Part shown: one piece after another, positions 36,549 to 53,986 of the stretch
Position numbering within the stretch: the first letter of the stretch is position 1
Layout of the letters: every line of letters begins with the position of its first letter
NCBI GenBank assembly: GCA_029838195.1
Contig: JALGVJ010000042.1
Location: forward strand, 1 to 64,000
Direction of reading: 5' to 3'
From: Promethearchaeota archaeon
GTDB taxonomy: Archaea; Asgardarchaeota; Lokiarchaeia; Sigyniarchaeales; SOKP01
DNA: 64,000 nt
Notes under the pieces: model-generated
Seen by the model: only the letters and a program-made list of their open reading frames with translations
Database searches by the model: none
Told to the model about the DNA's origin: nothing
Program-made: the position numbers and the translations under genes

Positions 36549-37436
36549 TCAGTTTTTATAGTTTGATAATCTGAAAAAGAATTTGTTGTAAAAGTACAAA
36601 AATATCAATCCAACTCCAAAAAAAACCATGAAAAGGTAAGTATATTCTTCCGGAACGGAGATAAGATATAATCCCAGATTTACAAATATTATTTCTAATA
36701 ATAGCAATAGCCCTAAGCACATTCCTACAATAACGATGCCAAGAAAAAAATAACCGACTAAATCATGCATGAGATAAGAATATGCTATGCTATCTTTTAG
36801 TTTTCCCTTTAATTTAATTTTAGAGGTTTTTCCTTTTTTTAGATTAACTTTTAACGCTTTAACATGAAGTAATTGTTCAAAATCAATGGGGTTATAATGC
36901 TGTTCTAACCGATGTTCCAATCTTTTTTCTTCACTATTAAGACGTGTGAGTAACATGGAATTTATGTAATCTTTTTTAGGAGTTGCAGTCTTTAAATTTG
37001 AAGAAACTTCATGAAACGCTTGAAAAGGGGTTAGATTCCAATATAAATCTTCCCGAAATTCTGAAGTTATATCGGGGATCTCAATTTTTCGTAATTCATA
37101 ATAGAGATTGATTAAAAATTTCAAGTAATCTTTTGATAAATACCCCTCTTTTCTTAAGAATTCAAGTTCGATACCTCGAAGGATTTCAACCGTCAAGTCT
37201 TTAAAGAGATGAAAATGGAAGGCATGGTTCACGAATTGATCGATAAAATTCATGTATTCATGAAGCTTTTCGTTAACTTCTTTTTTCCGAGGTCTTAGAC
37301 CTAAATGAATAGCAATTACATGTAATTCGTTGTTTATCAAGCTCATGAGGACAACCGCTAATTTTTTATAATCATGCGTTTTATTACATGTTTTAACTAA
37401 TTCAATCAATTTTTTATCCACGAGAGTTAGGGTCAT
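36549..37436 (-). CDS. Hypothetical protein with two C-terminal TM helices
   Basis: 295 aa; helical soluble N-terminus; abuts the upstream gene (operon). Confidence 0.7.
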   Translation of the reverse strand: MTLTLVDKKLIELVKTCNKTHDYKKLAVVLMSLINNELHVIAIHLGLRPRKKEVNEKLHEYMNFIDQFVNHAFHFHLFKDLTVEILRGIELEFLRKEGYLSKDYLKFLINLYYELRKIEIPDITSEFREDLYWNLTPFQAFHEVSSNLKTATPKKDYINSMLLTRLNSEEKRLEHRLEQHYNPIDFEQLLHVKALKVNLKKGKTSKIKLKGKLKDSIAYSYLMHDLVGYFFLGIVIVGMCLGLLLLLEIIFVNLGLYLISVPEEYTYLFMVFFGVGLIFLYFYNKFFFRLSNYKN

Positions 37437-38255
37437 TCATTTTCCCTCCTTGTTTTCCTGAAATAACCATAATTTTCCTTCTTCTTCAGCAATTAACTTG
37501 TCAAAATCAATTTCATCGCCATGTAAATATATTAAATTCTCAATTTTTGAAGCATTTTCATTTTTTTCTTGTTCAAAAGTTATTTGAATGAAATAATAAT
37601 GTAAAAAATAAGGAAATACTAAAATAAAAGAGAAAACCATTAAATAATAACCTAATCCAACTGAATAATGATAATAAAATGTAGTTCCTCCAATTTCCGT
37701 GGAGATTATTGCAAAAGGAAAATAGAAATTATTTAATATTAGATGTTTTAAAGGAAAAATTACAATATAATATCCCATTAGGAATAATAATACAATATTG
37801 CTATAAGCATGGATTTTTAATGGTTCTAAATTCTCAGAATTTTCTATATCTCTGAAAATTAATTGAAATAAAGAGAATAGGGTTAATATTAATACTGAAA
37901 AAGGTAATATCAAGGGATTATCCAGGTTTTGCGGGTAAGCAATTATATTATCCTTATTGTTTTTTGAATACCATCCATTTAATAGAGAAAACCTCCATTC
38001 TACGATTAATACATTTCCTTCCAGAACTTTAAGTGCATACCAATCGGAACAGATAGAAATTATACAAGAAAGGAGCCCTAAAGCCGTTAAAAATTTAAAC
38101 ACCTCGCTAATTTTAAAATTTCTTACGAGTTTCATTTTAGAACTTTTCTCTTTTCTTATTTTTTTTAATATTTTTCGTTCCATGTTCGAATTTAACCTTA
38201 TAATATTGCTAAAATTTCTTGAAAACACTACTAAATTATGACTTAATGCTAACAT
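37437..38255 (-). CDS. Four-TM membrane protein with claudin/PMP22-like topology
   Basis: TM1-SDWY...SLLNGWY loop-TM2-TM3-loop-YSVGLGYYL-TM4. Confidence 0.65.
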   Translation of the reverse strand: MLALSHNLVVFSRNFSNIIRLNSNMERKILKKIRKEKSSKMKLVRNFKISEVFKFLTALGLLSCIISICSDWYALKVLEGNVLIVEWRFSLLNGWYSKNNKDNIIAYPQNLDNPLILPFSVLILTLFSLFQLIFRDIENSENLEPLKIHAYSNIVLLFLMGYYIVIFPLKHLILNNFYFPFAIISTEIGGTTFYYHYSVGLGYYLMVFSFILVFPYFLHYYFIQITFEQEKNENASKIENLIYLHGDEIDFDKLIAEEEGKLWLFQENKEGK

Positions 38256-38287
38256 TCAATTTAGAAACTATTAAATTAAAGATACCC

Positions 38288-39499
38288 TCATGGCTTCCTT
38301 AAGATATTGATTTTCCTTGTTCTATTTTTTTGATAAATAAAAGGAATCTCCCCTGAATTATTAAAAATAAAAAACTCTTTTTTTAAATTTGATTTCCCGA
38401 TTTCAAATAAAAATTGACTGAGTAAAGGTTCAGGCAGCTCATTTTGGAGCATGTATATATCCTCTTGCTTTAATTCCATATTAGAATTTGGGAAAAGGTT
38501 CTCTTCAAGTAAGATTTTCTTGAATTGGAGCCAAATCTTTAGATGTTTAAATAGAAAAATCATTAGTAAGAGACAATAAGATAACAGAATTCCAATAAAT
38601 GTATTGAAAAAACTACTTATAAAGAATGGATTAAACCTTAATAAAATAAAATAAATGATTCCCAGAGCTAATATTGGTACTGAAATATATCTTATATTTG
38701 ATAAAAATGAAGGATAAGAATATAGAAACTTGTTTCTTAAGATTTTTCTCTGAGATAAAGATTCATGTAATTGAATTTCTTGCAATAAGTATTTGAGAAA
38801 GTTTTTTAATTGATTGATTTCGATCACGTGAAGATTTGAATTCCGTTGATAACTAAATGGTATCCTGGCATCAAAAGTGTTAACCTTAGTAAGCGTGAGA
38901 AGAATCGGGCACGTGAGCTTTATATATCTTACTGCTCCAATCTTCACGTGATTTTTCTTGGTATCCATCAATTTTTTAAGGATTTTGGGGCAGGTAGAAA
39001 GCTCATCTTGAGAATTTCCAATTTTCATGAGATTAGATCCAATACATTTCGAAAAAAATTCATAATTAAAAACCCCATATAATGGCTGATATTCTGATAA
39101 ATCGCTTAACTCATTTTTCTCCTTTTTTTTAATCCATGATTTGATTCTATCATTTTTTATGATAAGAGGTAGCTTAACAATGCAAGATATGATCGGCACG
39201 AGCAAAATTATTATATAATTAAAAGCAACTTCAATTTTCGTTAATCCTATTAAGATTAAATTAGTCTCGTCAAGCATGCAATCATTATTTTCCTGACTTA
39301 AATCAATAATTTCAATTCCTAATTCTGTTAAATCTTGTCGAGCACGATCAATTAATATTTTTTTTTCTTCTAATGTAAGCATGTATTGTTGGGCTCCAAT
39401 ATTCTTGTTATCATGACCTTGATTAGCGATTCTCCCTTGTAATGCATTAAAATTCTCGCTTGATATATTTTCCCTATTTAAATTATCTCCAATTATCAT
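38288..39499 (-). CDS. Hypothetical membrane protein
   Basis: 403 aa with two TM helices near the C-terminus; first gene of an apparent 3-gene operon. Confidence 0.65.
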   Translation of the reverse strand: MIIGDNLNRENISSENFNALQGRIANQGHDNKNIGAQQYMLTLEEKKILIDRARQDLTELGIEIIDLSQENNDCMLDETNLILIGLTKIEVAFNYIIILLVPIISCIVKLPLIIKNDRIKSWIKKKEKNELSDLSEYQPLYGVFNYEFFSKCIGSNLMKIGNSQDELSTCPKILKKLMDTKKNHVKIGAVRYIKLTCPILLTLTKVNTFDARIPFSYQRNSNLHVIEINQLKNFLKYLLQEIQLHESLSQRKILRNKFLYSYPSFLSNIRYISVPILALGIIYFILLRFNPFFISSFFNTFIGILLSYCLLLMIFLFKHLKIWLQFKKILLEENLFPNSNMELKQEDIYMLQNELPEPLLSQFLFEIGKSNLKKEFFIFNNSGEIPFIYQKNRTRKINILRKP

Positions 39500-39524
39500 C
39501 TCATTAAAATATTATAGCTGAAAA

Positions 39525-39541
39525 TATAAAAAGAAAAAATG
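39525..39541 (-). promoter_or_regulatory. Shared non-canonical promoter CATTTTTTCTTTTTATA
   Basis: TATA part about 26 bp upstream of ATG 39499; identical inverted copy at 39667. Confidence 0.65.
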
Positions 39542-39666: not shown

Positions 39667-39683
39667 CATTTTTTCTTTTTATA
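39667..39683 (+). promoter_or_regulatory. Shared non-canonical promoter CATTTTTTCTTTTTATA
   Basis: About 35 bp upstream of ORF 39718; identical 17-mer to 39525-39541(-). Confidence 0.65.
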
Positions 39684-39717
39684 AAAAGAAATTAATTAAA
39701 TTATAAAATTATAAAAA

Positions 39718-39942
39718 TTGAAAAAAACAACGAGCATGATAAGAAAAAATAAAAATCTTCAATATATTTCTTTAGAAAAAAGAGTTGAACAATCCTTTCA
39801 AGAAGAATTATTAAAGATTCTTGTATCTTTTAACTCTCTAAACAATAATGAAGATAAAATGGAAGAAAGTGATACTTCTTCTAATAATTTACCTGATGAT
39901 GTAAAAAAAACTCTCATGCAAGAATATTTTCAACTAATTTAA
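39718..39942 (+). CDS. Small hypothetical protein
   Basis: 74-aa ORF downstream of the shared promoter motif. Confidence 0.55.
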   Translation: MKKTTSMIRKNKNLQYISLEKRVEQSFQEELLKILVSFNSLNNNEDKMEESDTSSNNLPDDVKKTLMQEYFQLI

Positions 39943-40055: not shown

Positions 40056-43000
40056 TTATTTCTGCCTATTCTTCTTTAGAATTGTAGAGAGTCCAATTAT
40101 GGCACAAGGAGAAATTAAGAAAATTAACCCAAAAGCAATCTGAGATAAACCAATTATACTTGATTGATTTGTTAGGGACGTATCTAAAGATTGTTCTTCC
40201 TCATTTTTTGGGTTAGATTCCTCTTTAGGAGTGTTTTCTATAATTGTTGGTTGCGTGGTATTGTAATGAATGATTTTATAGACAAATACGATTTCTTCAT
40301 CCAAATTTCCCGCAGTATCATTGACTTGAAAAATAATGTTAATAGTATCATTTTGGAACAAATTCCACGATACTTGGTCTATGATTCCCGCATGCGTGAT
40401 TTGGGAGCCATTGTTTTGGAAAAGTGAGAAATTTAAATAATTAAAGGGGGACGAATAAGTTCCATTTGATAAAAAATACCATCCCGAATCAACATGAAGT
40501 TCCTCTATAAATATTTGAAATTGAGGAGGTTGCTCATGAAATAACTCGGCTTGTAAGGGTTGGATAATGGAGATTTTCGGAAGCGTAGTATCTTTATAAA
40601 TTTTAAGCATCTTAGTTCCTAAATTTCCCAGACTATCATTTGCAAAGAACGTGATATTTATTAACCCATCATTCATTTCTTCCCAAATATTCTGAGAAAT
40701 GAAAATGTCAGATGAATTCTCAAAATAAACGGGCCCTCGAATGTGAATACCATCATCCAAAACATACCACGCATCTTCTAGATATGCATTAGCTAAAGAA
40801 CTGTTAATTTCAACTTCACAGTGAGGCGCTATTTGACCATGAATTTTTTCGTCGGCTGGATTTATGATGTTAATTAGGGGAGGACTTAAATTTTTATTAA
40901 TGATGATAGTCTCATCATCTTGATTTCCCTGAGTATCATTCACGTGAAATGTAATATAAATGGAGCCATTATCAAGAGTGTTCCAGGCTGGTTCATTTAT
41001 CGTCCCATTCTCAATAAAAGGATATGTTAAAAGATTATTCTCAATTGTATACCAGATCTTACTTAAATTCTCAATTCTTACATCTAAGACAAAAAATGGT
41101 GGATTTTCACCAAATATCTCAAAAGGTGGAGGCGATAAAATATTCATAAAAATTTCTTTAATAGTAAATAAATAAATTGGGCTTGATTCGAAGTCGTTCA
41201 CGATATAAATTTCAAAACGATAAGTTCCGGCTTCTGGAACTGTATAATTTAAATAATATTCACTATAATTTCCTTGATGAGTAAAATTAGGTTGTAGGGT
41301 TTTAATTAAAACATTGTTTCTCGATAAATTAACATGTACGAATGATTCAGAAAGATCATGAGTATTAAAGCCCGTTACAATGGAAATGTTAAAATAAATT
41401 AGCAGATTATTGGAATTTTTTAAATGAGACTCTTGATATTCAATCTCATAAGTTGTATTAAAAAAGATTTCCACTTCTTCTTGGAATTCTAAATTATTAT
41501 ATACTTTAATCATTCCACTAATTATAGGATAATTTTGAGAAGAATACGGTACAAAAATTTGTGCCTCATGGCATCCATTAGGTTGCTTAACTAGAGGAAT
41601 GAGACCTAATTGAGGGCTTTCAAATTTCATCGTTATATTTTCACGATTTTCAAGCATTACCATATTAAAATACCCCGCTGTAAGCGTATTTGAAGCCTCC
41701 AGAGGAATGGTTTTAGAATAAATAACATGGAGTTTTGGAGGACTATTCATTGCCATTTCAGTTAACCAAGCAAGATATTCATGGTGTACATCACTACTTG
41801 AGGGCGTTTTGAGAAATTCATGCTGAGATTCTGAATATAAAGATGTTACTAATGCTCGTAATGCAGTATAATTAAATTCAAGATTTAGATTCAGTAGTTG
41901 GGAAATTTTATAAGAATAATATACATTTTCAAGATTCTCATAATTCAATACTCGTTCTAGATAATTTTTTATCTTTGTGGAATTTAAATCATATCTGTCA
42001 AGAATTCTTAAAATCCATGTAAAATAATAAGTGGTTTTCAAGATTTCCGTAGTTGTATTCGTGTAAAAAGGTTGAAAACAAAAGATGGTCGAATTTTCAA
42101 ACCCATGATGTAAGATATAGGTGGTTAAAGCATCCATATCAAGAGGCAAGTCCGTAACATTACCTATTCCTAAAAATGTTGCTAATAAATCTAACGATTT
42201 AATGACATAAAATGCATGTTCAGGATATACATATTTGTTTTGAAGGGAAGGGTCCAGATATCGCATGAGGTTATCGGGAAAAAATCCTCCATTATTGGGG
42301 TATTGGGAATCTAAAAATTGACATTCTATAAGACCGTTCATTAAAGCAGTTAAATTTGCATTCGAAGCAAAAGCATCTAAACTTCCAATCTTATTAAGAG
42401 TATCTAGGGCTAAAAATGTAGATTCGGGATTATGGACCATGTTAATCTCATGAAAATGTTCATGGGTTCCCAAGCTATAATATTCAATTGGAAATGTTTG
42501 AAAATATTCTTCATCAGAATCAAAATTTGTATACATATAGAAATATTGATTATTTAAAATGGGGATTGTTTTATAAGAATTCATGATATTGGAATAAATG
42601 TAAGAAAGATTCAATTGTTCTAATTGATCATGATAATCAAAAACAGTAATTAATGAGTTATAAAGTACTTGCGAGGGATAGTCCTGGGAGAGAAGGGCAT
42701 ATCCATGTTGAGAATGATAAAGGTCGAGAGCATTATATATTTGATTTTTGTCTACGGTTGATAAGGAATTAATTAATCCTGAATTTCTTAGAGCTTGGAG
42801 CACGTGATAAGTATAGAAAATTTCATGATGAGATATTGCTGAGGATTTATCCCAGATTCCAAGAGAATTCCGATGATTTACTAAATATTCTCCTACTTGC
42901 GAAGCATTAATTTGGAAACACGCGGTTAAGTTTAATAGTTCTAATCCAATTGCAGTTGCTAAAATTCCCCAATAATCAAAAGAAAAATATTTATTTTGAG

Positions 43001-43973
43001 GACCAACACGAAAATGATTATCGATGGGATCAAATAAATAATTCAAATACGCATGAAAATTTTCCATGTTTATAGAATTAAGGGAATCGAGTAATGCTAA
43101 AGCTTTAAGTGAATAAAATGATGCATATAAATTAGTTTCATCAATCTGCATGGTGTTAAATTCTTCATCGAGGTCATTAAAAAAACCTCCTAAATGTTTT
43201 CCCTGATCATTATATTGTAAACTCTGCAGAAATTGAATGAGTTCATTTCTTTGAGTCGTGTAGTTCAGCCAATCTTCTAATAAAAGATCCAAAACCTTAA
43301 TGGCGTAATACGTGTTATCTGCTGTCGAGAGGTTTAAGAAATTCCCTAGATTTTCGTTATAAGGCATACCAATGAATCCAGAGCTCATGGGATTATAGCA
43401 ACTCCAGATGAAATCAATCATTTTTTGAGAGTTAATTTGATCTAATTCTTCTAGAAGATCTAAGGATAAAATAGCATAACAATTAATTTCTAAGGGGGAG
43501 CTTAACCAGTAATACTTGTTTTTATCAGGGTCCATGTCTAAATATCGTTTTGAGCATGAATCTGAAAAGATTCCTGAAATGGGATCATAAAAGGATAAAA
43601 GATAACTCGTGATTTTTGACTTGTTGACGAGATCTAATTTATCAATATCATGATAAATAGATAAAGCATAATACGTTGCTTGTATCGTAGTGGGATGGTT
43701 CTCCGGATAATATCCTAATTCTTCGAAATCATTTAATTTTGTTAAACGCACATCTTCCATTATTTCATTTGTATAATTGAAAAAACTACTAGAGGAAGTT
43801 TTTAGCTCATTATTTATTTTATGGCGCTCCTCATTATAATTAATGGGGTTTATAAGTGTTTCATTATCGGGGGCTTGAAAGTTAGAACTTACGGGAGATC
43901 CATAAGGAATCGAGAAAATTAAAAAATAATTAAGGATTATTGTAAAAACTAAAATTCTTTTTTTACGGTTCAT
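40056..43973 (-). CDS. Membrane-anchored surface protein with prenyltransferase/squalene-oxidase-type alpha/alpha repeats and Ig-like domains
   Basis: Signal peptide; repeats SSGF...TADNTYYAIKVL, GGFF...NLYASFYSLKAL, GGFF...EHAFYVIKSL; three NDxxGN Ig-like units; C-terminal TM. Confidence 0.82.
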   Translation of the reverse strand: MNRKKRILVFTIILNYFLIFSIPYGSPVSSNFQAPDNETLINPINYNEERHKINNELKTSSSSFFNYTNEIMEDVRLTKLNDFEELGYYPENHPTTIQATYYALSIYHDIDKLDLVNKSKITSYLLSFYDPISGIFSDSCSKRYLDMDPDKNKYYWLSSPLEINCYAILSLDLLEELDQINSQKMIDFIWSCYNPMSSGFIGMPYNENLGNFLNLSTADNTYYAIKVLDLLLEDWLNYTTQRNELIQFLQSLQYNDQGKHLGGFFNDLDEEFNTMQIDETNLYASFYSLKALALLDSLNSINMENFHAYLNYLFDPIDNHFRVGPQNKYFSFDYWGILATAIGLELLNLTACFQINASQVGEYLVNHRNSLGIWDKSSAISHHEIFYTYHVLQALRNSGLINSLSTVDKNQIYNALDLYHSQHGYALLSQDYPSQVLYNSLITVFDYHDQLEQLNLSYIYSNIMNSYKTIPILNNQYFYMYTNFDSDEEYFQTFPIEYYSLGTHEHFHEINMVHNPESTFLALDTLNKIGSLDAFASNANLTALMNGLIECQFLDSQYPNNGGFFPDNLMRYLDPSLQNKYVYPEHAFYVIKSLDLLATFLGIGNVTDLPLDMDALTTYILHHGFENSTIFCFQPFYTNTTTEILKTTYYFTWILRILDRYDLNSTKIKNYLERVLNYENLENVYYSYKISQLLNLNLEFNYTALRALVTSLYSESQHEFLKTPSSSDVHHEYLAWLTEMAMNSPPKLHVIYSKTIPLEASNTLTAGYFNMVMLENRENITMKFESPQLGLIPLVKQPNGCHEAQIFVPYSSQNYPIISGMIKVYNNLEFQEEVEIFFNTTYEIEYQESHLKNSNNLLIYFNISIVTGFNTHDLSESFVHVNLSRNNVLIKTLQPNFTHQGNYSEYYLNYTVPEAGTYRFEIYIVNDFESSPIYLFTIKEIFMNILSPPPFEIFGENPPFFVLDVRIENLSKIWYTIENNLLTYPFIENGTINEPAWNTLDNGSIYITFHVNDTQGNQDDETIIINKNLSPPLINIINPADEKIHGQIAPHCEVEINSSLANAYLEDAWYVLDDGIHIRGPVYFENSSDIFISQNIWEEMNDGLINITFFANDSLGNLGTKMLKIYKDTTLPKISIIQPLQAELFHEQPPQFQIFIEELHVDSGWYFLSNGTYSSPFNYLNFSLFQNNGSQITHAGIIDQVSWNLFQNDTINIIFQVNDTAGNLDEEIVFVYKIIHYNTTQPTIIENTPKEESNPKNEEEQSLDTSLTNQSSIIGLSQIAFGLIFLISPCAIIGLSTILKKNRQK

Positions 43974-44019
43974 GTTTTAAATCCTTGAATTTATTCCTAT
44001 AGGAAGAATACCCCGAATA

Positions 44020-44038
44020 TATTTAAAGAAAAAATGAG
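44020..44038 (-). promoter_or_regulatory. Shared non-canonical promoter CTCATTTTTTCTTTAAATA
   Basis: About 47 bp upstream of ATG 43973, correct orientation. Confidence 0.65.
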
Positions 44039-44057: not shown

Positions 44058-44414
44058 TTAATGATATCCTCTTAAAATACCTTCATTCATCTCCGAAAAA
44101 AATATGAAAAAATCTAGGTTTAATAAAATAGCACCCAAAAAAAGCAGAAGAAAACCTCTAACCATTGTTTTTAAGCCCCTTGAAGATTGAGTGCAAAAAA
44201 TAGAGATGAGTCCCCATATCAGCATGAATCCTCCTATAATCATTATTATTCTCGCAATTGACGATATAAAATTCTCAATTAATGAATTTGGTAAAAATCC
44301 AAAATTATTTCTCCATGTTTTCTCCAAAATGGGATAAAAAATAATAAAAATAACTACGATTAAAAAAAAAATCCAAATGTAATGCCTTTTCTTTTTGGTA
44401 CTATTAGAATTCAA
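44058..44414 (-). CDS. Small three-TM membrane protein (pilin-like hairpin possible)
   Basis: 118 aa; TM, amphipathic helix, then TM-short basic loop-TM. Confidence 0.7.
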   Translation of the reverse strand: MNSNSTKKKRHYIWIFFLIVVIFIIFYPILEKTWRNNFGFLPNSLIENFISSIARIIMIIGGFMLIWGLISIFCTQSSRGLKTMVRGFLLLFLGAILLNLDFFIFFSEMNEGILRGYH

Positions 44415-44476: not shown

Positions 44477-44492
44477 TATTTAAAGAAAAAAC
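44477..44492 (-). promoter_or_regulatory. Shared non-canonical promoter GTTTTTTCTTTAAATA
   Basis: About 63 bp upstream of start 44414, correct orientation. Confidence 0.6.
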
Positions 44493-44517
44493 AGTATTCA
44501 AGGCAAAAGTTTTCAGT

Positions 44518-46000: not shown

Positions 46001-46083
46001 ACATTATATTAGATCTAAAAAAAATTAATATGTTTTCCCCTAATTTAATTTTATCCTTTACTTGCCATCTTGCCAAATAAACT

Positions 46084-46608
46084 TTAAATAATTCCCCAAA
46101 ATTTAACTTCTTCTTTATATTTTTCATATTCTTCTCCAAATTTCTCAAGGTTAACTTGTTCTTCCCATTTTGAACTAAAAATGCATAAAATGAAAGAAAT
46201 GATCATAAAAATGATGGTAAAATATGAGGGAATCCAGATTAATACGCCTATATTGGCAATAGCACATCCGAAATACATGGGATGACGCATGTATTTAAAC
46301 CATCCTTTTTTAATGACAATCGTAGTATTTTCCCAATTTTTTCCTTGACCGAACTTTTTCATTATGATAAGTTGGCTGATAAAAATAAAAAATCCAACAG
46401 CGATTATCAAGAGACCGAATATTGTTGTAATACTATTCTGATAAAATTTATTAAAATATTGTCCAATGAATGACCCCGTGAAATAAAAAATCAATGCTAA
46501 AGCAGCAGTTATCTCATATTTAATCTTCATTTTTATTCCATTAAGTAACCAGTGGAGACAAAATCCCATCATTATTATCCATGCAATAAGCGGAAATAAA
46601 TCAAACAT
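46084..46608 (-). CDS. Isoprenylcysteine carboxyl methyltransferase / PEMT-family membrane protein
   Basis: GWFKYMRHPMYFG and EE...KFGEEYEKYKEEV. Confidence 0.88.
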   Translation of the reverse strand: MFDLFPLIAWIIMMGFCLHWLLNGIKMKIKYEITAALALIFYFTGSFIGQYFNKFYQNSITTIFGLLIIAVGFFIFISQLIIMKKFGQGKNWENTTIVIKKGWFKYMRHPMYFGCAIANIGVLIWIPSYFTIIFMIISFILCIFSSKWEEQVNLEKFGEEYEKYKEEVKFWGII

Positions 46609-46777
46609 TTAACATTCTCACCTCATTTTTTCTTATTTTAAAATTTTTAATTAATATAATTTAAATAGTCAGAGCTAAATATTTAAACTTCATCATTCAG
46701 ATTGAAATATTTAAATTAAATGTTGCATAATTATTAATAAAAAATAGGATGATAGGTAAATTTAAATAAAATATGCC

Positions 46778-47413
46778 ATGGTAAAAAAGAGATTTACACC
46801 GCTAAAGACATTTATTTTAGGCGTTTTTATAACTTATAATAAGGAAATGAGCGGTTATGAATTAATTAAAACTGCTGAAGAATGGCGTTATGATCATTTT
46901 ATCAATGCTACTAAAGCTTCTTTTTATTATACACTCAAAAAATTGCAAAAAGAAGGCTATATTAAAGAAAAAGAAATTAAAAAAGAGGGAAATCGTCCCG
47001 AACAGACAATTTATACATTAAATCCTAAAGGAAGAAAAGAATTCGAAAAACAAATGGAGTATTTTCTTAATAAAGTTGAAGAATTATATTTTGACCTCGA
47101 TGTAATTACCCCATTTATTCTTCTTTTCGGTTTTTCTAAAAGTAAGGAATATCTTATTAATGCTTTAAATAAACAAATCAAAACAAGGAAAAAGTATAAT
47201 CAACATATTAATGAGGGAAAAAGATATGTTCAATCCCATGAATTGTATGGTTTGAATCCATTTATGATATTACCCATTCAGCATTTTGAACTCCATAATA
47301 ATGCCGAAATACAATGGTTAATTCAATTTCGCGAATTAATAAAAAATATTGATTTTGAAGCAAACATTAAAAAAATAATGAAAAAAAAGTCTAAAGGTGT
47401 CATTATTTCTTAA
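46778..47413 (+). CDS. PadR-family transcriptional regulator
   Basis: MSGYEL, ASFYYTLKKLQKEGYI, GNRPEQTIYTLNPKG, AEIQWL. Confidence 0.9.
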   Translation: MVKKRFTPLKTFILGVFITYNKEMSGYELIKTAEEWRYDHFINATKASFYYTLKKLQKEGYIKEKEIKKEGNRPEQTIYTLNPKGRKEFEKQMEYFLNKVEELYFDLDVITPFILLFGFSKSKEYLINALNKQIKTRKKYNQHINEGKRYVQSHELYGLNPFMILPIQHFELHNNAEIQWLIQFRELIKNIDFEANIKKIMKKKSKGVIIS

Positions 47414-47843
47414 TAACAAGGCAATTTAATTTTCAAAAAGATAACCACTTCAATATTTAAATATTATAATAATAAAAAATATCTTTTAAAGAATCCATAA
47501 AAAAAACCGAAAAATTATTTTGTATGTGGTGGAAAAATAATATTTCATTCTAATAAAGAGCATTATAAATGCCAAAAATGTAATACTATTATTTCCTCGG
47601 AAATATTTAGAAAACCTCTTAACTCTAAAAAAAATGCGAAATAGAACTTTCCGCTTCTAAAACTTTTGTTTGCAATGCTTGGAGCAACTTATTTATTTTA
47701 TCTTTTAATGAGAATCTTTATTTTTTAAAAAATGAGATCTCATAAAGTAGATCATTATTAATTCATTTAAATTTAATTAATGAATCATCTTTAATTGAAT
47801 TAATCATGTTATTTATTTAAATTAAACGAGGAGATTTATTAAA

Positions 47844-48409
47844 ATGAGCTATGTTTTAGATACTATTATCGCGATTTCTAGCGGTTGTGTCAGTAATTTA
47901 GGGGTTCTTTTTCAAAAAAAAGTAATTAATGATTATAAAAACAATCCGGAATTTCTAAAAAATTTAATAAAAAGTCCAATTTAGATATTTGGACTCATAT
48001 TGCAGCTTATCATAGGAGGAGTAATTTTGTATATGATTGCTCAAGTATTTTTAAGCCCCACTCCCGTTCCGGGTTTAATGAGCGCCGGATTAATTGTTTT
48101 AGTGTTAGGATCAATAAAAATCATTAAGGAAAAATTTCGAATAATAGAATTATTAGGTAGCATTCTCATGGGGATCGGTATATTAATGCTTAATTTAAGT
48201 AGACTATCCATTGACATGTCAGCGTACAACATTTTAGAGCTTGATTTTGTAATCAGAATAACGATTTTTACACTTTTAATATTTATCATCATATTCTCGA
48301 TTCAATATATATCAAAGTATTATATAAAAGGGAGAGGAGTCTGTTTTCCCATAAAATCCGGATTTAGCTACTCCTTAGGTTCTATTTGGATTGGACCTAT
48401 CATTACTTT
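47844..48409 (+). pseudogene. DMT/NIPA-like transporter pseudogene
   Basis: ATG 47844 MSYVLDTIIAISSGCVSNLGVLFQKK...KSPI*IFGL is in frame with ORF 48000; TAG at 47982-47984 where Trp is expected; 3' end cut by an IS relic. Confidence 0.75.
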
Positions 48410-48630
48410 TATAACTATTTATGATGCATTAAATAATTTCGTAAAATTGCACTGCGTTTTAATTTCCGTGGAGGCATGTTTATATTTTCTAATAAATTTA
48501 AAGATTGCCCGTTGAAATTCCTTAAACGTGCTAAAAAAAGTATCATGGGTGACTTTTTTGCGTAAAAACTTCCAAAACCACTCCATTTAAAGTTTTAGCG
48601 TAATGCGCACGAGCATTATCCAAATCAGTT
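48410..48630 (-). mobile_element. IS630-family transposase remnant (3' end, internally deleted)
   Basis: Minus strand encodes LDNARAHYAK and, in another frame, EWFWKFLRKKVTHDTFFSTFKEFQRAIFKF...FNAS*; ends at TATA (48410), consistent with a TA target. Confidence 0.8.
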
Positions 48631-48760
48631 CTGGTACTTATTAATCAAAAATATTCATTTAACGAATCAAAAAAAAAGTCATAAAAAAATTAAACTTCAT
48701 TTATGATTTGTAAAAGCTATAAAGCATTTGGAGGAGATAATTCAAATACTACAAAATATG

Positions 48761-49120: not shown

Positions 49121-49526
49121 TTCTTAGATTTCACCTTTTTTAAAATTTTATTGAGTAAAGGTAAAAAGCCAAATATATTCTTTTTGTATTAGTAGATGTT
49201 TGTTTGATTTTTATTTTTAGAAGCATGTTTAAAATGAACTTTAAAATTCTTTCCATGATAAAAAATAGTTTTAAATATATTTAATAAAAAAACAAAAAAT
49301 TCACGATAAATCAAAAAATTCACGGATAGTACTTTTTTAAATAGCATCCATGATTTTCATGATCGTTAAATCGTTTTCACGATTTAGGAAATGAAAGGGA
49401 TATTGTTAAAAGATAGATTTAAATTCCGAGATCATTATCTCGAAATCCGATTAAAATCAGGTTTATCATGTACTCATCCATTTAGAAACAATTCAAGATA
49501 ATTTTTAGTTAAAATGGTGGAAAAAA

Positions 49527-50492
49527 ATGATGGTTAAAAATAATAAAAAAATTATGAATTTCATGATCGATTCTCATTTAGAATGTGATCAATGCGGTTC
49601 TAAGAACATAATTGAAACTGAAGAAGGCTATGCATGTCGTGACTGTGGAATCGTGTTAGCGCTCCAACGAATAAAAAACTATTTACCATTTGATGAGAAA
49701 CAGCTTCAAAATGCACCTCCAGGCTCAACTCAAATAGGCTTCAAACAAGAGCGCATGCAGTCTCCTCGAGTGCTACAATTCAATCGAATGGTAAAATTAA
49801 ATGCAATAAAAAGAAGTGAGGAGAGAGCAATGAAAATTGCTGAAAAAGAAATCAGCCGGATTCTCGAAGCCTTACAAATCAATTTTGATGAGAGGGAAAA
49901 AAGAAATATCCTTGAACACGTGATGAGAATAAGACAAAATATAAAAAAAGGTACTAAATATCGTAATTTGGAGAAACTGGTTCCCATTATTTTACACGTG
50001 TATTGCAAACTTCATAATATTTCTATTAATAGTAAAGAGTTATTAGAAATCTCGAACATCACTAAAAATGAATTTACTTCTTTTTTAAGACAAATTCATT
50101 ATTATTTTCCAAGATATCAATCAAGAAATCGCCAAAAATATATTGCTCAAAAGATCTTAGAAGTCACCGAACATTTCAAGTTGGGAATGAATTTTTATCA
50201 TCAAGCTATGAGGTTAATGAAGGTACTATGGAATTCAATTCAATTTACTAAAGATGATGTGATTGCAGGTATTGTTTGCTCAATTACAGTTCTTTGTAAT
50301 TATAGAGATTGCGTGAAAGTAAAATATATCTGTGATAAATTAAATATTCGCATGAGTACCATTCAAGCCCAAATTAAGAGGAACATCTTTGAAAAAATGA
50401 AAATCGACGGATTTACATCCCTCATCCAATCTGCAGATCTCTTAAAAAATGTAATGAATGAAGCAGGGTACTTAAACGTTCATAAAAAATAA
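49527..50492 (+). CDS. Divergent TFB (TFIIB) paralogue
   Basis: Zn ribbon CDQCGS...GYACRDCG; cyclin repeats (EISRILEALQI, EKLVPIILHVYCK, DVIAGIVC); altered HTH VKVKYICDKLNIRMSTIQAQIKR. Confidence 0.85.
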   Translation: MMVKNNKKIMNFMIDSHLECDQCGSKNIIETEEGYACRDCGIVLALQRIKNYLPFDEKQLQNAPPGSTQIGFKQERMQSPRVLQFNRMVKLNAIKRSEERAMKIAEKEISRILEALQINFDEREKRNILEHVMRIRQNIKKGTKYRNLEKLVPIILHVYCKLHNISINSKELLEISNITKNEFTSFLRQIHYYFPRYQSRNRQKYIAQKILEVTEHFKLGMNFYHQAMRLMKVLWNSIQFTKDDVIAGIVCSITVLCNYRDCVKVKYICDKLNIRMSTIQAQIKRNIFEKMKIDGFTSLIQSADLLKNVMNEAGYLNVHKK

Positions 50493-50575
50493 ATTAATGA
50501 TTTTTTCATTTATAAATTAAAAATATTTTAATGTTTAATTGAAAAAAAAAACCAAAATCATCAAAATATCTTTTT

Positions 50576-50797: not shown

Positions 50798-51182
50798 TTT
50801 TGATTCAAGGTTTTATCTATTTCTTTAAGTGATTGCGCGATAAAAAAGTGAAGAATCTTTATTTTTACATTCATTTTTCGCTCTTAAAATGAATTTAACA
50901 ATGATTAAATAATATTTTCATTTAGAATTACGATCATATTGTTTCAATTCTTTATTAAGAGCACAACTCTGAAGATTTATCGTTATTTCAAAATTAAAAA
51001 AGAATATAGAATATCTTTAAAATAAATTCTTGTTCTTTAAATTTTAAATATCCAATGTTTCTATTAATATGATTCCAATAAGAGGAAGTCCAATGAATAC
51101 CATCAAAATTCATGAATTCTCGTGAATTATTAACGCCCAAATTAAAGATTTGTTCATTCATGAAAGAAATTACCTTTCTTTT

Positions 51183-51235
51183 TATTTAAAGAAAAAATCC
51201 TCTTCTCTTTCTATTCTTAATTTTTTCTTTAAATA
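51183..51235. promoter_or_regulatory. Back-to-back pair of the shared promoter ATTTTTTCTTTAAATA (perfect 16-bp inverted repeat)
   Basis: TATTTAAAGAAAAAAT at 51183-51198 and ATTTTTTCTTTAAATA at 51220-51235; the plus copy precedes GNAT gene 51299. Confidence 0.7.
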
Positions 51236-51298
51236 GAATGGAGGGATCTAATCTTCAAGAAAAAATTAATTAAAAATACATCAAATAGAGAAATTTAA

Positions 51299-52516
51299 AT
51301 GACAATAGAAACCCCCATCGAAATTCCTCTCAATGATTTATACTTCAATTATATTGATACTCTTTCGAATAAGTTTCATTACATCACTCCTGATTTAGAG
51401 GAGGGAATGTCGCTCCCTTTTGAACTAATTAAGCAAGGAGGGAAGCAAAAAATTAATCCCGTGATACAAGCTGCTCGACCAGAACATGCACGGGAAATTG
51501 TAAAAATTTATAAAGAGATTTACCACGGAACTTATCCTTATAAAGAAATGGAGGATGAATTAGAAGTAAAACACATGATAGAACAAAATGACCATTCTTT
51601 TCTCATATTTAAAGATAATAAAGGTACTATAATGGGATGCTTCACGTTTGTTTTTAATTTTGAGGAGAAACGAGCTTATTTACGGGGCTATAATGTAAGG
51701 CCAAAATATCAAAAATATTTTGATGTCATAAAGGGATTTCTAGGGTCTTTAATTGGCATACTGTATTTGTATCGAAATAAGATTCTTGTTTGGTATGCTG
51801 AGAATCGCACGGCTCATGCTGCGTCTCAATATTTTTGTCAAGTTGCGGGAGTGAAAAACGTGGCGTTTCTTCCTAATAAAGATATTTTCTTTCGAAAAAT
51901 AGAGTCTGACATGTTGCATGTGGGATATAATAAAGACGCATTAACAACCTTTAGATCAAGGGAAATTCCTCAAATTATTCCAAGTATTATTAATTGTTAC
52001 GCCTTTTCTAATAAAAGATATTCATTAGGGAAAGCCGATATTGTCAATCCTAAACTCATTCTTAAAGATCAAGTGATGTGGGAGCTTAAAAGCAAGATCA
52101 ATGTAAGAATTAAAAAGAAAAAGTTTAATTATCAGATAATTAAATTTACCCTCTCAAATACGGATAGTTATTTAAAATGTTTATATACACCCATGGTTAA
52201 AAATATTGAAAAAATAGAATATAACATCGATAAATTGGAAGAATTACATGTATTTCTAACTGAATTAAATAAATTTTGTCGCTTAAAAAATATCCGTTAT
52301 GCTGAATGCTTGGTTTCTGCTCACGAACCTTCTCACCAACAAATTTTTTTAAAAGCAGGTTTTCAACCTCGCGGGTATATTCCTAGCTGGAAATATAATA
52401 GTGTAGAGAAAAAATTCACGGATCATGTCATGTTTAATTGGTTTGTGCCACCCTTGAGTAAAAATATCCAACTTATTGAGGAGGGATGGGAATTATTGAA
52501 ATATTTAAATTTATAA
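51299..52516 (+). CDS. GNAT-family N-acetyltransferase-like protein (two domains)
   Basis: ARPEHAREIVKIYKEIYHGTYPY, GYNVRPKYQ, ENRTAHAASQ, GFQPRGYIP. Confidence 0.8.
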   Translation: MTIETPIEIPLNDLYFNYIDTLSNKFHYITPDLEEGMSLPFELIKQGGKQKINPVIQAARPEHAREIVKIYKEIYHGTYPYKEMEDELEVKHMIEQNDHSFLIFKDNKGTIMGCFTFVFNFEEKRAYLRGYNVRPKYQKYFDVIKGFLGSLIGILYLYRNKILVWYAENRTAHAASQYFCQVAGVKNVAFLPNKDIFFRKIESDMLHVGYNKDALTTFRSREIPQIIPSIINCYAFSNKRYSLGKADIVNPKLILKDQVMWELKSKINVRIKKKKFNYQIIKFTLSNTDSYLKCLYTPMVKNIEKIEYNIDKLEELHVFLTELNKFCRLKNIRYAECLVSAHEPSHQQIFLKAGFQPRGYIPSWKYNSVEKKFTDHVMFNWFVPPLSKNIQLIEEGWELLKYLNL

Positions 52517-52869
52517 ATGATTTTTCAAGTAAATCTTTTTAAATTGTATTGGTTATTCTCTTAGTCCTTGATTTTTTACTCTTAATTCTTTTGTTCTCGT
52601 TTAGATTAGTTTTATTCCAGAGAATTTTTTTGATAATCTCTAAATTCATTCTTATAAATATCGGAACCACCTCTTAAATTGGTTTTATTAAATTTACCAT
52701 GAATTACTTGTAATTTATCAATAAAAAGGGCAATATTTTCAGGGAAAAAGTAATGCGCCGAATAAATGAAATGATGAAATTCATTCGTATTGCTTTTTCT
52801 ACAACTTGTTAAAGGGGAACTTTTTAATAAGAAGAAAAAAATCGATATCCTTCCATTTAATCCCTACAT

Positions 52870-52885
52870 GTTTTTTCTTTATATA
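52870..52885 (+). promoter_or_regulatory. Shared non-canonical promoter GTTTTTTCTTTATATA
   Basis: About 58 bp upstream of the probable true start ATG 52943. Confidence 0.6.
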
Positions 52886-52942
52886 GTTCTAAATTATTTA
52901 AATGATAGAATTAGAAAATCAATTAACTTTATTAATGCTCTC

Positions 52943-53986
52943 ATGACCAAGTTTCCCATAAAATTATTTAGCAGCTTTTTTTTAATTTCAATCTTATTTC
53001 TATTTAATATTTTTCCTTCCGTACGAGCGAATTCTAATTATCTCATTAATGACGTGTTCACATTTCAAGAACCTTATCATGAATTAATTCATGGTCTCTC
53101 TTTAAATAAAGGAAAAGAATATAACATCCATTTTGAAATTGTAAGTCCCCATAATTGCACCATGGCGATAAATCTTGCTGATCCTCAAGGTTCCATTTAC
53201 GAGCTTTTTAGAATTAGTTTGAATTTTCCAAACGGTTTCGGATTTTCGAAAGATTTCTCTCATGTAGCTGCGATGACCGGATTACATTATTTAATTGTAA
53301 AAGTTTGGACAGAAGAAAACATTAATATTCATTTATCCGTTGAAGATCGGGGGGATTTTAAATTCGAGAGCGAATTCACGAATAAAACCGTAGAAACAAC
53401 AATCGAAAAGGTTCATGATGGATATTCACGCCAATTCACCCGTGATTTCAAAAAGAATTATTTATACGAATTTATCTTTAAAAGGGTTTCGCCCATTCGA
53501 GGAGATTTTAATATCTTTGCTACAATTGAATTTTGGATTCAAACATCTCCTCCAAACCAAACTCGGTTTGTTCTATTGGCAAATGAAACTCTGCCGGATG
53601 TAATGCAGTTAATTTCCACCCAATTTGGTACTGCCATCAACGATACATATACTTGTAATTATACCATTCATTCGAATATTGAACCTTTTAATTTAGTTCA
53701 CGGAATCGTGGAAAAATATTTAATCTCAGAAAATGCCGGGAGTGAGTCATCTCTAAAGAACGAAACGGAAGATTCTATTCCGGAAGAAAATGATTCTTCG
53801 AGTAATTCATCCTCTACCAATGAAACGGAACCTTCAACTAATTATTCCGCGAGATTGGGAGATAATTCATCCATTTTTGTTTCTCAGCAACAATTTCTTG
53901 GAACCCTTACTGTTGCGGGAGGAGGAACCTTGATCATCATGGTAATTTTTTATTCATATAAAAAAAAGAACAAGATTACCATTTAA
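52943..53986 (+). CDS. Secreted beta-sandwich protein with C-terminal TM anchor (start corrected from 52790)
   Basis: In-frame ATG 52943 yields signal peptide MTKFPIKLFSSFFLISILFLFNIFPSVRA; Ser/Thr/Glu linker; TM followed by KKKNK. Confidence 0.75.
   Translation: MTKFPIKLFSSFFLISILFLFNIFPSVRANSNYLINDVFTFQEPYHELIHGLSLNKGKEYNIHFEIVSPHNCTMAINLADPQGSIYELFRISLNFPNGFGFSKDFSHVAAMTGLHYLIVKVWTEENINIHLSVEDRGDFKFESEFTNKTVETTIEKVHDGYSRQFTRDFKKNYLYEFIFKRVSPIRGDFNIFATIEFWIQTSPPNQTRFVLLANETLPDVMQLISTQFGTAINDTYTCNYTIHSNIEPFNLVHGIVEKYLISENAGSESSLKNETEDSIPEENDSSSNSSSTNETEPSTNYSARLGDNSSIFVSQQQFLGTLTVAGGGTLIIMVIFYSYKKKNKITI

Follow-up and report, generated by a model that had tools for sequence, protein, structure and literature searches.

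A candidate T-run/TATA promoter class in accessory islands of a Lokiarchaeial family that encode divergent TFB-like proteins

Introduction

That paralogues of TFB can serve as sigma-like factors is an established idea in the archaeal field. Haloarchaea carry multiple TFBs, and TFB3 of the Sulfolobales, which is without the cyclin core and acts with TFB1, is associated with the UV response, Ups pili and Ced DNA import. A 64,000-nucleotide stretch of contig JALGVJ010000042.1 from an Asgard archaeon (hereafter the window) raises the question of whether a recurring T-run/TATA element marks a promoter class of its own and, if so, which protein reads it. An initial annotation had proposed a regulon spanning 36549-53986, driven by a TFB paralogue encoded within it and devoted to a cell-surface programme. 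No published description of such an island or promoter system was found in a literature search.

Results

Seven oriented motif copies in the window

An exact scan for RTTTTTTCTTTWWATA recovered seven matches at the positions initially reported and none elsewhere in the window, against a chance expectation of 0.03 (dinucleotide shuffles of the window; 0/100 shuffles reached seven). The motif comprises a TATA box (TTTWWATA) preceded by six Ts plus C and an upstream purine, which occupy the position of the archaeal BRE. All seven copies have a same-strand start codon 21-63 nt downstream, measured from the 3′ end of the TATA box, confirming that they aim at nearby open reading frames, and both proposed divergent pairs (39525/39668 and 51183/51220) are real.

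39525..39540, minus strand: promoter copy 1, ATTTTTTCTTTTTATA; 25 nt to ATG 39499
39668..39683, plus strand: promoter copy 2, divergent with copy 1; 52 nt to ATG 39736, 34 nt to TTG 39718
44020..44035, minus strand: promoter copy 3; 46 nt to ATG 43973
44477..44492, minus strand: promoter copy 4; 62 nt to TTG 44414
51183..51198, minus strand: promoter copy 5; 21 nt to ATG 51161
51220..51235, plus strand: promoter copy 6, divergent with copy 5; 63 nt to ATG 51299
52870..52885, plus strand: promoter copy 7; 57 nt to ATG 52943
54066..54081, plus strand: variant copy, AGTTTTTGTTTAAATA, preceding 54114-54281 and 54349-55077; identical in the closest relative (L020)

Since ATG 39499 lies only 25 nt from its TATA box, the mRNA from copy 1 is probably leaderless, and because copy 7 falls inside an ORF opened at TTG 52790, that ORF is over-extended. 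Flanks beyond the 16 bp are unconserved, which identifies the motif as a discrete site, not a repeat. The reported 2-mismatch copy at 49278-49293 is present, 157 nt from ATG 49120, but is not conserved: the 90 nt that hold it are absent from the L020 contig, and it was left out of the count. Intergenic, oriented and set at a fixed distance from start codons, the seven sites are predicted, as judged from their sequence, to be core promoters that form a class of their own.

Oligo-T tracts are established as signals for termination in archaea, which bears on an alternative that we regard as unlikely, namely that the element is read by the general machinery (TBP plus one of eight canonical TFBs) through DNA shape, or as a terminator or insulator joined to a promoter. 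The islands described below would then share the element through common descent together with duplication, and the TFB-like protein would be, for example, a repressor or a polymerase-independent factor. In keeping with termination, the tandem T-runs hug the upstream gene, as at 44020-44035, 23 nt past the stop codon of 44058-44414; against it, four of the seven copies are divergent or unpreceded and have no upstream transcript to terminate. Moreover, the length of the T-run and its register relative to the TATA box are fixed, spanning exactly the BRE position.

The motif is concentrated in three related islands

Across the 4.5-Mb genome there are 17 exact copies of the motif, 13 of which lie in three related islands that make up 2.4% of the sequence (binomial 2e-18, with bounds drawn after the hits were known). 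They are C50, which is the window island, C89 and C49; one member of a highly divergent family of TFBs is encoded in each, and the three paralogues are found on precisely the three motif-rich contigs; with MAG contamination at 7.9%, their assignment to one genome presumes correct binning. Island matches with at most one mismatch were intergenic in 31 of 34 cases, non-coding DNA being 20% of the genome, and mostly had a same-strand ATG 20-90 nt downstream. A de novo search for 8-mers enriched in island intergenic DNA relative to the rest put sub-words of the motif at the top.

For TATA boxes with a start codon 15-60 nt downstream, positions −7 to −2 held five or more Ts in 16/24 island cases and 13/373 elsewhere (Fisher 3e-15), the same region being slightly A-rich outside the islands. 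The T-run/TATA element is not the general promoter of this organism, bearing out the view that it is an alternative to the usual one. The roughly 13/373 well-placed boxes outside the islands that are also T-rich upstream, together with the eight canonical TFBs, one or another of which could favour T-tracts, leave some support for reading by the general machinery. However, paralogues of island genes located outside the islands are without the T-run: the GNAT/365-aa gene pair on contig C92 is preceded by an A-rich element.

Genes behind the motif

Most of the proteins encoded downstream of the seven copies are membrane or surface proteins, accompanied by a GNAT-like protein, as initially described.

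36549..39499, minus strand: three-gene orphan membrane operon (38288-39499, 403 aa; 37437-38255, 272 aa; 36549-37436, 295 aa)
39736..39942, plus strand: small ORF, 68 aa from ATG, 74 aa from TTG 39718
40056..43973, minus strand: 1305-aa surface protein with signal peptide, prenyltransferase-like alpha/alpha toroid and C-terminal membrane anchor
44058..44414, minus strand: 118-aa three-TM protein, paralogous to proteins of C89 and C49
~44500..48700: mosaic of foreign DNA within the island, free of motif copies
50994..51161, minus strand: 55-aa ThiF/E1-like N-terminal remnant, target of copy 5
51299..52516, plus strand: 405-aa GNAT-like protein (PF00583, E 6e-5)
52943..53986, plus strand: 347-aa secreted protein, C-terminally anchored, with paralogues in C89 and C49

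Family searches gave no match for the operon proteins; a paralogue of the 272-aa protein is encoded on C89, and the related locus L018 has a syntenic orthologue of the 403-aa protein (35% identity). L018 also has a weakly similar counterpart of the small ORF in the matching position (35% identity over 43 aa). The 1305-aa protein matches PF00432 (E 8.7e-16) and has a C89 paralogue and an L018 orthologue (47% identical), while the GNAT-like protein has a C89 paralogue (51% identical) that itself has a 1-mismatch motif copy upstream. One target listed as a small protein, 50994-51161, proved to be the remnant of a ThiF-type gene: relative to L020, ~2.1 kb holding the rest of ThiF and a 363-aa gene has been deleted. 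The TFB-like gene has its most constant neighbour in the gene for the 347-aa secreted protein, which is present in 62/101 genomes of the family and lies within ~5-15 kb of the TFB-like gene in >30 of those 62.

The proposed extent and purpose of the regulon stood only in part. Its middle (~44.5-48.7 kb) is foreign and motif-free, containing a PEMT/ICMT-like methyltransferase, a PadR regulator and, at 48412-48587, the end of a multicopy mobile-element repeat. The surface character of the window targets holds, but the system is not confined to the window, and in C89, the largest island, RadA-, XPF-, FEN1- and helicase-type genes lie behind the motif, pointing to recombination and repair.

A Ced/Ted-type DNA transfer apparatus was considered and rejected. 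From its set of VirB2-like pilin, VirB6-like channel and ATPase, the only trace was a sub-threshold TrbC/VirB2 hit, the sole family match of the 118-aa protein (E 9e-4, 19.8 bits vs a cut-off of 27.9). For a Ced/Ted-type or conjugation-like apparatus, no VirB4/HerA-type ATPase was recognised in the window, and no Walker A motif was seen by eye in the 403-aa protein. PDB searches with two larger proteins from the C49 and C89 islands found no match.

A divergent TFB-like protein encoded among the copies

49336..49343, plus strand: likely own TATA box of the TFB-like gene, without T-run; from conservation only
49527..50492, plus strand: gene of the divergent TFB-like protein (321 aa), which has a zinc ribbon, a pair of cyclin folds and the helix MSTIQAQ but not the C-terminal tail of the family
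54349..55077, plus strand: second TFB-like protein, 242 aa, without zinc ribbon; helix ISSNTFKRRK

The genome encodes eight canonical and three divergent TFBs together with a single TBP. The recognition helix of the window protein reads RMSTIQAQ, where all eight canonical TFBs have (V/I)TE(V/A)T(I/L/V)R(N/S/M)R, in agreement with the proposed rewriting of the helix-turn-helix. Across 30 family members the four zinc-ribbon cysteines (C20, C23, C37, C40) and the helix pattern M-S-T...Q are invariant; that the family-invariant change sits in the BRE-reading helix argues against reading by the general machinery.

Recognition by sequence is distant. PF08271 is precomputed on some family members, whereas in the window protein PF00382 is absent at E ≤0.01 and NCBIfam NF001658 scores 23.5 bits (cut-off 384). 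Identity to solved TFIIB/TFB structures is ~14-17%, and the family profile reaches the first cyclin repeat of TFIIB/TFB in the PDB (E 2e-4). The AF2 model (pLDDT 79; >90 over residues ~100-300) retrieved exclusively TFIIB, TFB or Brf among its top 40 PDB matches in Foldseek, and superposed on P. woesei TFBc in the TBP/BRE complex (1D3U chain B) with a TM of 0.75 over the target and an rmsd of 3.6 Å. The model thus indicates a TFB/TFIIB fold. With canonical TFB/TFIIB (PDB 1D3U, 1AIS) the protein shares this fold, the zinc ribbon, the two cyclin repeats and the location of the C-terminal helix-turn-helix; it differs in the helix, which in the family follows MSTIQxQ(V/I)K(K/R) in place of TEVTxRxRYKE.

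A predicted complex between the TFB-like core and the single TBP of the genome was weak, scoring 0.39 (best control 0.00), a mark met in calibration by 58/80 solved complexes and 2/110 mismatched pairs, with scores from there up to 0.60 coming from just 7 of the 80 solved complexes and from both passing mismatches. Runs agreed in at least 83% of contacts, with partner pLDDT of at least 86. Because TFB-TBP complexes have already been solved, this score may reflect memorised structures.

The embedded protein is a divergent TFB-like protein, as claimed, but only one of three, and the odd one: most family members carry an extra conserved C-terminal tail of ~100-135 aa ending in KGPP, which the window copy has lost. 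Its B-reader region also departs from canonical TFBs, and with the tail missing, its full competence as an initiation factor is uncertain. A dN/dS of 0.19 against the closest allele shows that the tail-less copy is under purifying selection.

Since archaeal activators and repressors often bind immediately upstream of BRE/TATA, the T-run might instead be the operator of another island-encoded regulator that recruits or blocks basal factors, a reading that we consider improbable. One candidate is the ribbon-less 54349-55077 of the window-type island, where this second cyclin/HTH protein is conserved (PF00382 sub-threshold, E 0.002; L018 orthologue at the same place, 42% identical; otherwise an orphan); an unrecognised DNA-binding protein would be another, given the numerous island proteins without a recognisable family. 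However, the ribbon-less protein has no paralogue in C89 and C49, which hold most motif copies, and its helix retains the canonical-type basic residues KRRK. No further candidate is common to all three islands, the TFB-like protein being the sole predicted DNA-binding protein among the families that they share.

Conservation in relatives

In the related loci L018 and L019, the T-run and TATA box are kept at 5/5 orthologous transcription units, the encoded proteins being 35-59% identical, which supports conservation of the motif upstream of orthologues. In nine other genomes (ten loci, six genera), the 40 kb flanking the TFB-like gene on each side contained 19 exact 15-mers, where the total of each genome predicts 3.2, a ~six-fold enrichment (Poisson 2e-9). 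The proposed co-occurrence of motif and TFB subfamily is thereby seen both on the three motif-rich contigs here and around the gene elsewhere. Per genome, motif copies numbered 5.5 with the TFB-like gene and 1.4 without, a modest difference confounded by relatedness and completeness. Assemblies without a detected TFB-like gene contained island fragments with 23 exact copies in ~139 kb; as every one of these fragments is a short contig or lies at a contig end, the gene may just have escaped assembly there. In another family, a single genome (G022) encodes a distant TFB-like homologue with the helix ASTVYSH and has no motif cluster. Taken together, the T-run promoter class appears, from these comparisons, to belong to an accessory island family of one Lokiarchaeial family.

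It is very unlikely that the islands are integrated viruses or mobile elements, with the motif as the element's promoter and the TFB as a viral-style take-over factor. The islands are indeed patchy within the family (74/101 genomes), their proteins have diverged more quickly than the flanking gene (35-59% vs 69% identity), the window island contains the mobile-element repeat and foreign DNA, and both a strain-level deletion and a recombination boundary are seen. Nevertheless, searches for integrase, capsid and replication genes found none, there was no meaningful PHROG match, and no relative of the TFB family turned up on IMG/VR viral contigs. Furthermore, another species of the genus has the island beside the same flanking gene, and the TFB-like and secreted-protein genes neighbour one another in at least seven genera.

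Discussion

Because the TFB-like gene, its putative targets and the motif travel together as an island, linkage alone cannot name the reader of the T-run. On balance we lean towards the TFB-like protein reading the T-run and activating the island genes. The factor would bind TBP on the TATA box, and its C-terminal helix-turn-helix, in which both base-contacting arginines of canonical TFB are replaced by glutamine (MSTIQxQ), would prefer the A:T tract at the BRE position. The conserved zinc ribbon would recruit RNA polymerase, and the island genes would switch on together once the factor is made. The gene's own putative promoter is of a different kind and is followed by a long leader (~184 nt after TATA 49336..49343) containing a block conserved in relatives, which suggests that the factor would head the cascade.

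Like TFB2, TFB3 and the haloarchaeal TFBs, the protein described here is a paralogue beside general TFBs that is linked to a defined gene group. It is much more divergent, with no Pfam TFIIB match, and its targets are physically clustered with it in an accessory island. Unlike TFB3, it retains the ribbon and the core. For Sulfolobus acidocaldarius TFB2, which acts in the cell-division wave, TATA boxes are near-identical and BREs similar, with spacing alone differing (bioRxiv 10.64898/2026.09.06.749720); here, the BRE position is a T-tract, a different sequence class.

ECF-type and phage sigma factors offer an analogy only, that of a recognition subunit encoded beside genes with distinct promoters; the protein family and mechanism are unrelated. 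If the proposed reading is true, the TFB-like protein would be a dedicated promoter-recognition factor of an Asgard island, akin to a bacterial alternative sigma factor.

A T-run/TATA motif is clustered in three islands

The initial annotation proposed an alternative-TFB regulon of seven T-rich-BRE/TATA promoters, defined by a 16-mer in which a run of six T's and a C is fused to a TATA box (RTTTTTTCTTTWWATA). Exactly seven copies of this motif were found in the window, confined to 39.5-52.9 kb.

Motif copies and TFB-like genes in the window
39525-39540 (-), exact copy
39668-39683 (+), exact copy
44020-44035 (-), exact copy
44477-44492 (-), exact copy
51183-51198 (-), exact copy
51220-51235 (+), exact copy
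52870-52885 (+), exact copy
54066-54081, variant copy AGTTTTTGTTTAAATA, upstream of 54114-54281 and 54349-55077; identical in L020, the contig of the closest relative
49527-50492 (+), TFB-like gene, 321 aa
54349-55077 (+), second TFB-like gene, product without a zinc ribbon

Chance was ruled out as their source by dinucleotide shuffling (0.03 copies expected in the window; 0 of 100 shuffles gave seven), and at two or fewer mismatches the window held 29 matches versus 11 expected. Alignment of 60 nt on either side of the copies revealed nothing conserved beyond the 16 bp, indicating that the motif is a discrete site and not a repeat element. Every copy was aimed at a start codon, as had been proposed, with 21-63 nt between the end of the TATA box and the start. 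For several copies this gap was 21-25 nt; by the established archaeal TATA-to-start spacing such a short gap corresponds to a leaderless mRNA, implying that these transcripts would be leaderless. The two divergent pairs were also real, and they rule out an oligo-T terminator as the sole role of the T-run; in tandem arrangements the tract may additionally terminate the upstream transcript. A further copy with two mismatches (49278-49293) had been put forward, and was left uncounted: it lies 157 nt from its assigned ATG and the 90 nt around it are absent from the closest relative, the variant at 54066-54081 being the better candidate.

Genome-wide (4.52 Mb, 94 contigs, 33% G+C; the window belongs to contig C50), only 17 exact copies were present: eight on C50, five on C89 and one each on C49, C19, C79 and C86. 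Allowing one mismatch gave 116 matches. Three motif-rich stretches, called islands here (C50 36-54.5 kb, C89 1-66 kb and C49 5-28 kb), account for 34 of these matches and for 2.4% of the genome. Judged with crude gene calls covering 80% of the genome, 31 of these 34 were intergenic, most of them 20-90 nt upstream of a same-strand ATG, while among the 82 matches in the remaining 4.4 Mb, 35 were intergenic and ten promoter-like. The motif is not a general promoter; it is rare, clustered in islands and, within them, intergenic and oriented towards starts.

All TATA boxes 15-60 nt before start codons were then compared. At least five T's occupied the six BRE positions in 16 of 24 island boxes versus 13 of 373 elsewhere (Fisher 3e-15; clustering p-values are descriptive, because the island bounds were drawn after the hits were seen). 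Outside the islands these positions were slightly A-rich, the expectation for archaeal BREs. All well-placed TATA boxes served as the reference in place of tRNA genes, which were dropped because aragorn gave only 16 candidates, several of them doubtful. A motif-blind 8-mer comparison of island intergenic DNA with the rest returned TTTAAATA, TTTTTCTT, ATTTTTTC and TTTCTTTA as top words. No second island motif could be defined from the enriched word ATCGTGAA, TCGTGAA being common genome-wide (1097 sites).

In a paralogous GNAT/365-aa pair on contig C92 the TATA box is preceded by an A-rich element, indicating that promoter class tracks the island and not the gene family. Among the four apparently stray exact copies is C50:77806, outside the window; the gene behind it is paralogous (86% identical) to a C89 island gene, which likewise has an exact copy of its own. 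A cassette of about 80 nt, consisting of CTATTTGCGTGATAGAAC, then T7CTTTATATA, then a second TATTTAAATAC box, occurs three times in this genome (G000 C14:18431, C49:16654 and C89:54808). Two of the three stand divergent from full-length TFB-like genes, and the arrangement may be an operator-promoter unit.

Each island encodes a TFB-like protein with an altered recognition helix

A tblastn search of island proteins against the genome located paralogues of the window TFB-like gene at C89:55460-56851 (44% identity) and C49:17306-18664 (42%), on the two other motif-rich contigs; these two are mutually 80% identical. With MAG contamination at 7.9%, placing the paralogues in one genome presumes correct binning, and the differing genomic contexts of the C49 and C89 genes argue for true paralogues.

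The window protein had no PF00382 match at E 0.01 or better and scored 23.5 bits against the NCBIfam TFIIB model (cut-off 384 bits). A phmmer search of the PDB with this sequence alone returned zinc-ribbon noise only, so a family profile was required. Among 5.8 billion proteins 148 relatives were found, typically 405-445 aa, the named ones annotated as Lokiarchaeota/Promethearchaeota. In an alignment of 30 relatives the invariant residues included the four cysteines of the ribbon and, in the C-terminal helix, M276, S277, T278 and Q282. In the PDB, the family profile matched human TFIIB (E 2e-4) and Pyrococcus woesei TFB (E 5e-3) at their first cyclin repeat. The AlphaFold2 model (mean pLDDT 79; >90 over residues about 100-300) had exclusively TFIIB, TFB and Brf chains as its best Foldseek matches. 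Its core superposed on TFBc of 1D3U, the TBP/TFB/BRE-TATA complex, with a TM score of 0.75 over the target and an rmsd of 3.6 A over 211 columns at 16% identity.

The genome encodes eight canonical TFBs and one TBP, the latter on C53. The rewired recognition helix noted by the initial annotation was borne out: all three divergent TFBs read I(R/Q)MST(I/V)Q(A/S)Q versus (V/I)TE(V/A)TxRxR in 8/8 canonical ones, from which their B-reader segments also differ. A 100-135-aa tail with a conserved terminal KGPP motif is missing from the window copy (321 aa) and from its 94% identical relative (309 aa), and no remnant of this tail was found in the genome. By dN/dS between these two (0.19; 23 synonymous and 20 non-synonymous differences), the tail-less copy is under purifying selection. 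A predicted complex of the TFB-like core with TBP scored 0.39 (best control 0.00), giving weak support only, and since TFB-TBP complexes have already been solved this score may reflect likeness and not binding. Contact agreement between runs was at least 83% and partner pLDDT at least 86. Of 80 solved complexes 58 reach the mark for this score, as do 2 of 110 mismatched pairs; at 0.60 or under, only 7 of the 80 reach it, along with both of the passing mismatches.

The simplest account, which we judge moderately probable, treats the divergent TFB and the T-run/TATA promoters as a matched pair, such that production of the factor would express the island as one unit. Consistent with this, the T-run fills exactly the BRE footprint and the family-invariant change falls in the BRE-reading helix, where Arg-to-Gln is the classical direction for turning a guanine contact into an adenine contact. 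Against it stand the linkage, which is that of the whole island, and the missing tail of the window copy. The eight canonical TFBs are also possible alternative readers, and the general machinery might itself read the T-tract promoter; given the helix change and the footprint, we regard this as unlikely. Recognition of the T-run by another island regulator seems very unlikely, as the three islands have no other DNA-binding candidate in common, a point that also favours the matched pair.

The motif was never found before the TFB-like gene itself, the upstream region of which has a different TATA context. Two direct repeats AAAAAATTCACG (49295-49324) lie just upstream of its likely TATA box, and the TATA box and the leader of about 184 nt that follows span 49336-49527. 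The leader holds a block, TTAGGAAATGAAAGGGATATT, conserved in L018, L019 and L020 (contigs of relatives with the orthologous island) and without an Rfam match; together these may form the control region of a master factor. Directly after the gene, on the opposite strand, is a 73-aa Cys-rich ORF (50576-50797; CPFHDSC...CKVQTCQICPEF), also found in L020 and without a T-run promoter. The ribbon-less protein (54349-55077) has a sub-threshold TFIIB repeat match and the helix ISSNTFKRRK, and another species of the genus keeps it in the same place (42% identity). A large protein search returned no homologues beyond its own cluster, and single-sequence folding gave an unusable model (pLDDT 51). Its role could be one of competition for TATA-bound complexes or of cooperation at them.

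The islands extend beyond a surface apparatus

Further families common to the islands are a surface protein of about 1300 aa, a 118-aa three-TM protein and a secreted anchored protein of about 350 aa; a membrane protein of the three-gene operon, a GNAT-like protein and a ThiF-type gene are common to C50 and C89 only. At 70-88% identity, C49 appears to duplicate the left end of the C89 island.

Genes on C89 behind the motif or one-mismatch variants
RadA/Rad51 paralogue with HhH tail
ERCC4/XPF and XPG/FEN1 nucleases
Hel308-like helicase and DEAD helicase
DUF4011 helicase-nuclease and OB-fold protein
ThiF, three DUF169 genes and Arf-like GTPase
C89:6356-8392 (also C49:19763-21787), 678-aa protein with N-terminal HhH DNA-binding domain and C-terminal TM helices

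The window targets are mostly membrane or surface proteins, as the initial annotation noted, but the C89 island places many further genes, among them recombination, repair and helicase genes and a GTPase gene, behind the motif, indicating that the proposed regulon is wider. The 678-aa protein has a long acidic low-complexity linker; its gene adjoins the secreted-protein gene, opposite the 118-aa and ~1300-aa genes, and has no copy in the window island. PHROGs and NCBIfam searches with ten island proteins gave nothing informative beyond the weak TFIIB match, and PDB sequence searches with two large island proteins gave no match. No atlas look-alike at 0.9 or above was found for the 347-aa secreted and 403-aa membrane proteins, nor any Rfam match in window 36-56 kb.

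The promoter class is conserved in relatives

Contigs L018 (another species of the genus) and L019, with 59-61% identical TFB-like orthologues, were syntenic with the window, sharing the order three-gene membrane operon, divergent small ORF, ~1300-aa prenyltransferase-like protein, 118-aa proteins, TFB-like gene and secreted ~350-aa protein. Beyond the secreted-protein gene, L018 continues with the ribbon-less TFB-like protein and the same nitroreductase flank. Identity was 69% for this flanking nitroreductase versus only 35-59% for island proteins. Upstream of orthologues, all five comparable transcription units hold a T-run fused to TATA (T10AAATA in L018, TTTTTCTTTAWAT in L019). That the island is a mobile element or virus seems so improbable as to deserve little weight: it keeps its chromosomal position, integrase, capsid and PHROG matches were all absent in island searches, and the TFB-like family has no relatives on IMG/VR contigs.

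Across 121 genomes of the order, the TFB-like family was present in 74/101 of the same family, 2/14 of a second family (weak matches) and 0/5 others. More than 30 genomes, from at least seven genera, have the secreted-protein gene within about 5-15 kb of the TFB-like gene. Within 40 kb on either side of ten TFB-like loci in nine other genomes (six genera), 19 exact 15-mers were found, where the totals of the individual genomes predict 3.2 (Poisson 2e-9), in agreement with the anticipated co-occurrence; relaxed T-run/TATA words cluster within about 25 kb of such loci. Measured against a reversed-pattern control, exact copies were in excess by 5.5 per genome with the TFB-like gene and by 1.4 without, a comparison that is weak and supportive at most because the latter genomes carry island fragments. 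These are motif-dense short contigs or contig ends (23 exact copies in ~139 kb), and an assembly effect probably explains why they lack the gene. In the single case of a closed genome of the second family, the distant homologue has the helix ASTVYSH and a motif cluster is absent.

The window island is a worn mosaic

Motif copies are absent from 44.5-48.7 kb, a stretch that includes a block of foreign DNA without T-run promoters.

Features of the C22-like block
45225-46037 and 47435-48422, pieces 69-76% identical to C22:57.3-59.3 kb, holding a 170-aa protein and a 171-aa membrane protein
46084-46608, PEMT/ICMT-like methyltransferase, flanked by these pieces
46778-47413, PadR regulator, flanked by these pieces

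A repeat of about 175 bp (48412-48587), 94-98% identical to ends of six contigs (C36, C4 at both ends, C53, C78, C61 and C35), probably represents the end of a multicopy insertion element responsible for breaks in the assembly. Compared with metagenome contig L020, 51025-58300 was 100% identical (7.3 kb), and identity fell to 94.7% over 49299-51045, the part that holds the TFB-like gene. The window lacks about 2.1 kb, comprising a 363-aa gene and most of the ThiF-type gene, of which the promoter and 55 codons are left; about 21 nt at the junction align on both sides. This junction marks a recombination or deletion boundary, and the identity step and deletion indicate that the island varies between near-identical strains. 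Taken together, these features make the island a worn mosaic.

Five metagenomes with DNA matching this stretch are from hydrothermal vents, the best carrying 0.35 of the sampled words. Adjacent large surface-protein genes at 29495-34017 (424 and 1068 aa) share near-identical internal segments, suggesting a split gene or internal duplication in the recent past. Just outside the island, Pfam marks on identical L020 genes identify a nucleotidyltransferase/HEPN pair (56784-57516), a toxin-antitoxin-type module.

Discussion

Alternative TFB regulons are already known, and whether archaeal TFB paralogues choose promoters by sequence, in the style of sigma factors, is a long-standing question. To our knowledge, the best studied paralogue cases show merely subtle differences in BRE or spacing. 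For S. acidocaldarius TFB2, near-identical TATA boxes and similar BREs with differing spacing have been described (bioRxiv 10.64898/2026.09.06.749720). Neither Asgard promoter classes nor T-rich BREs turned up in the literature searches. New here are the three-island layout, the tail-less yet selected window copy, the cross-genus proximity test, the out-of-island paralogue contrast and the strain-level decay.

A fuller reading, quite unlikely as a whole, is that an orthogonal initiation factor, its BRE recognition re-aimed to an A:T tract by Arg-to-Gln, drives an inducible cell-contact or DNA-exchange system. Such a programme would couple a second recombination and repair set (RadA-HhH, XPF, FEN1 and helicases) to a fast-evolving membrane and surface apparatus, including a membrane-anchored HhH DNA-binding protein, and would be functionally comparable to the Sulfolobales TFB3/Ups/Ced response.

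Here both the factor and its presumed sites differ sharply from their housekeeping counterparts; there are few sites, they occur in clusters, and the components are all small soluble proteins. Asgard archaea are the closest known relatives of eukaryotes, in which diversification of the TFIIB family (TFIIB, Brf and Rrn7) underlies the three polymerase systems. The case delimits an accessory programme, coherent and so far unstudied, that comprises surface, membrane and recombination genes. If the fuller reading is true, Asgard archaea would have a sigma-like promoter-specificity switch.
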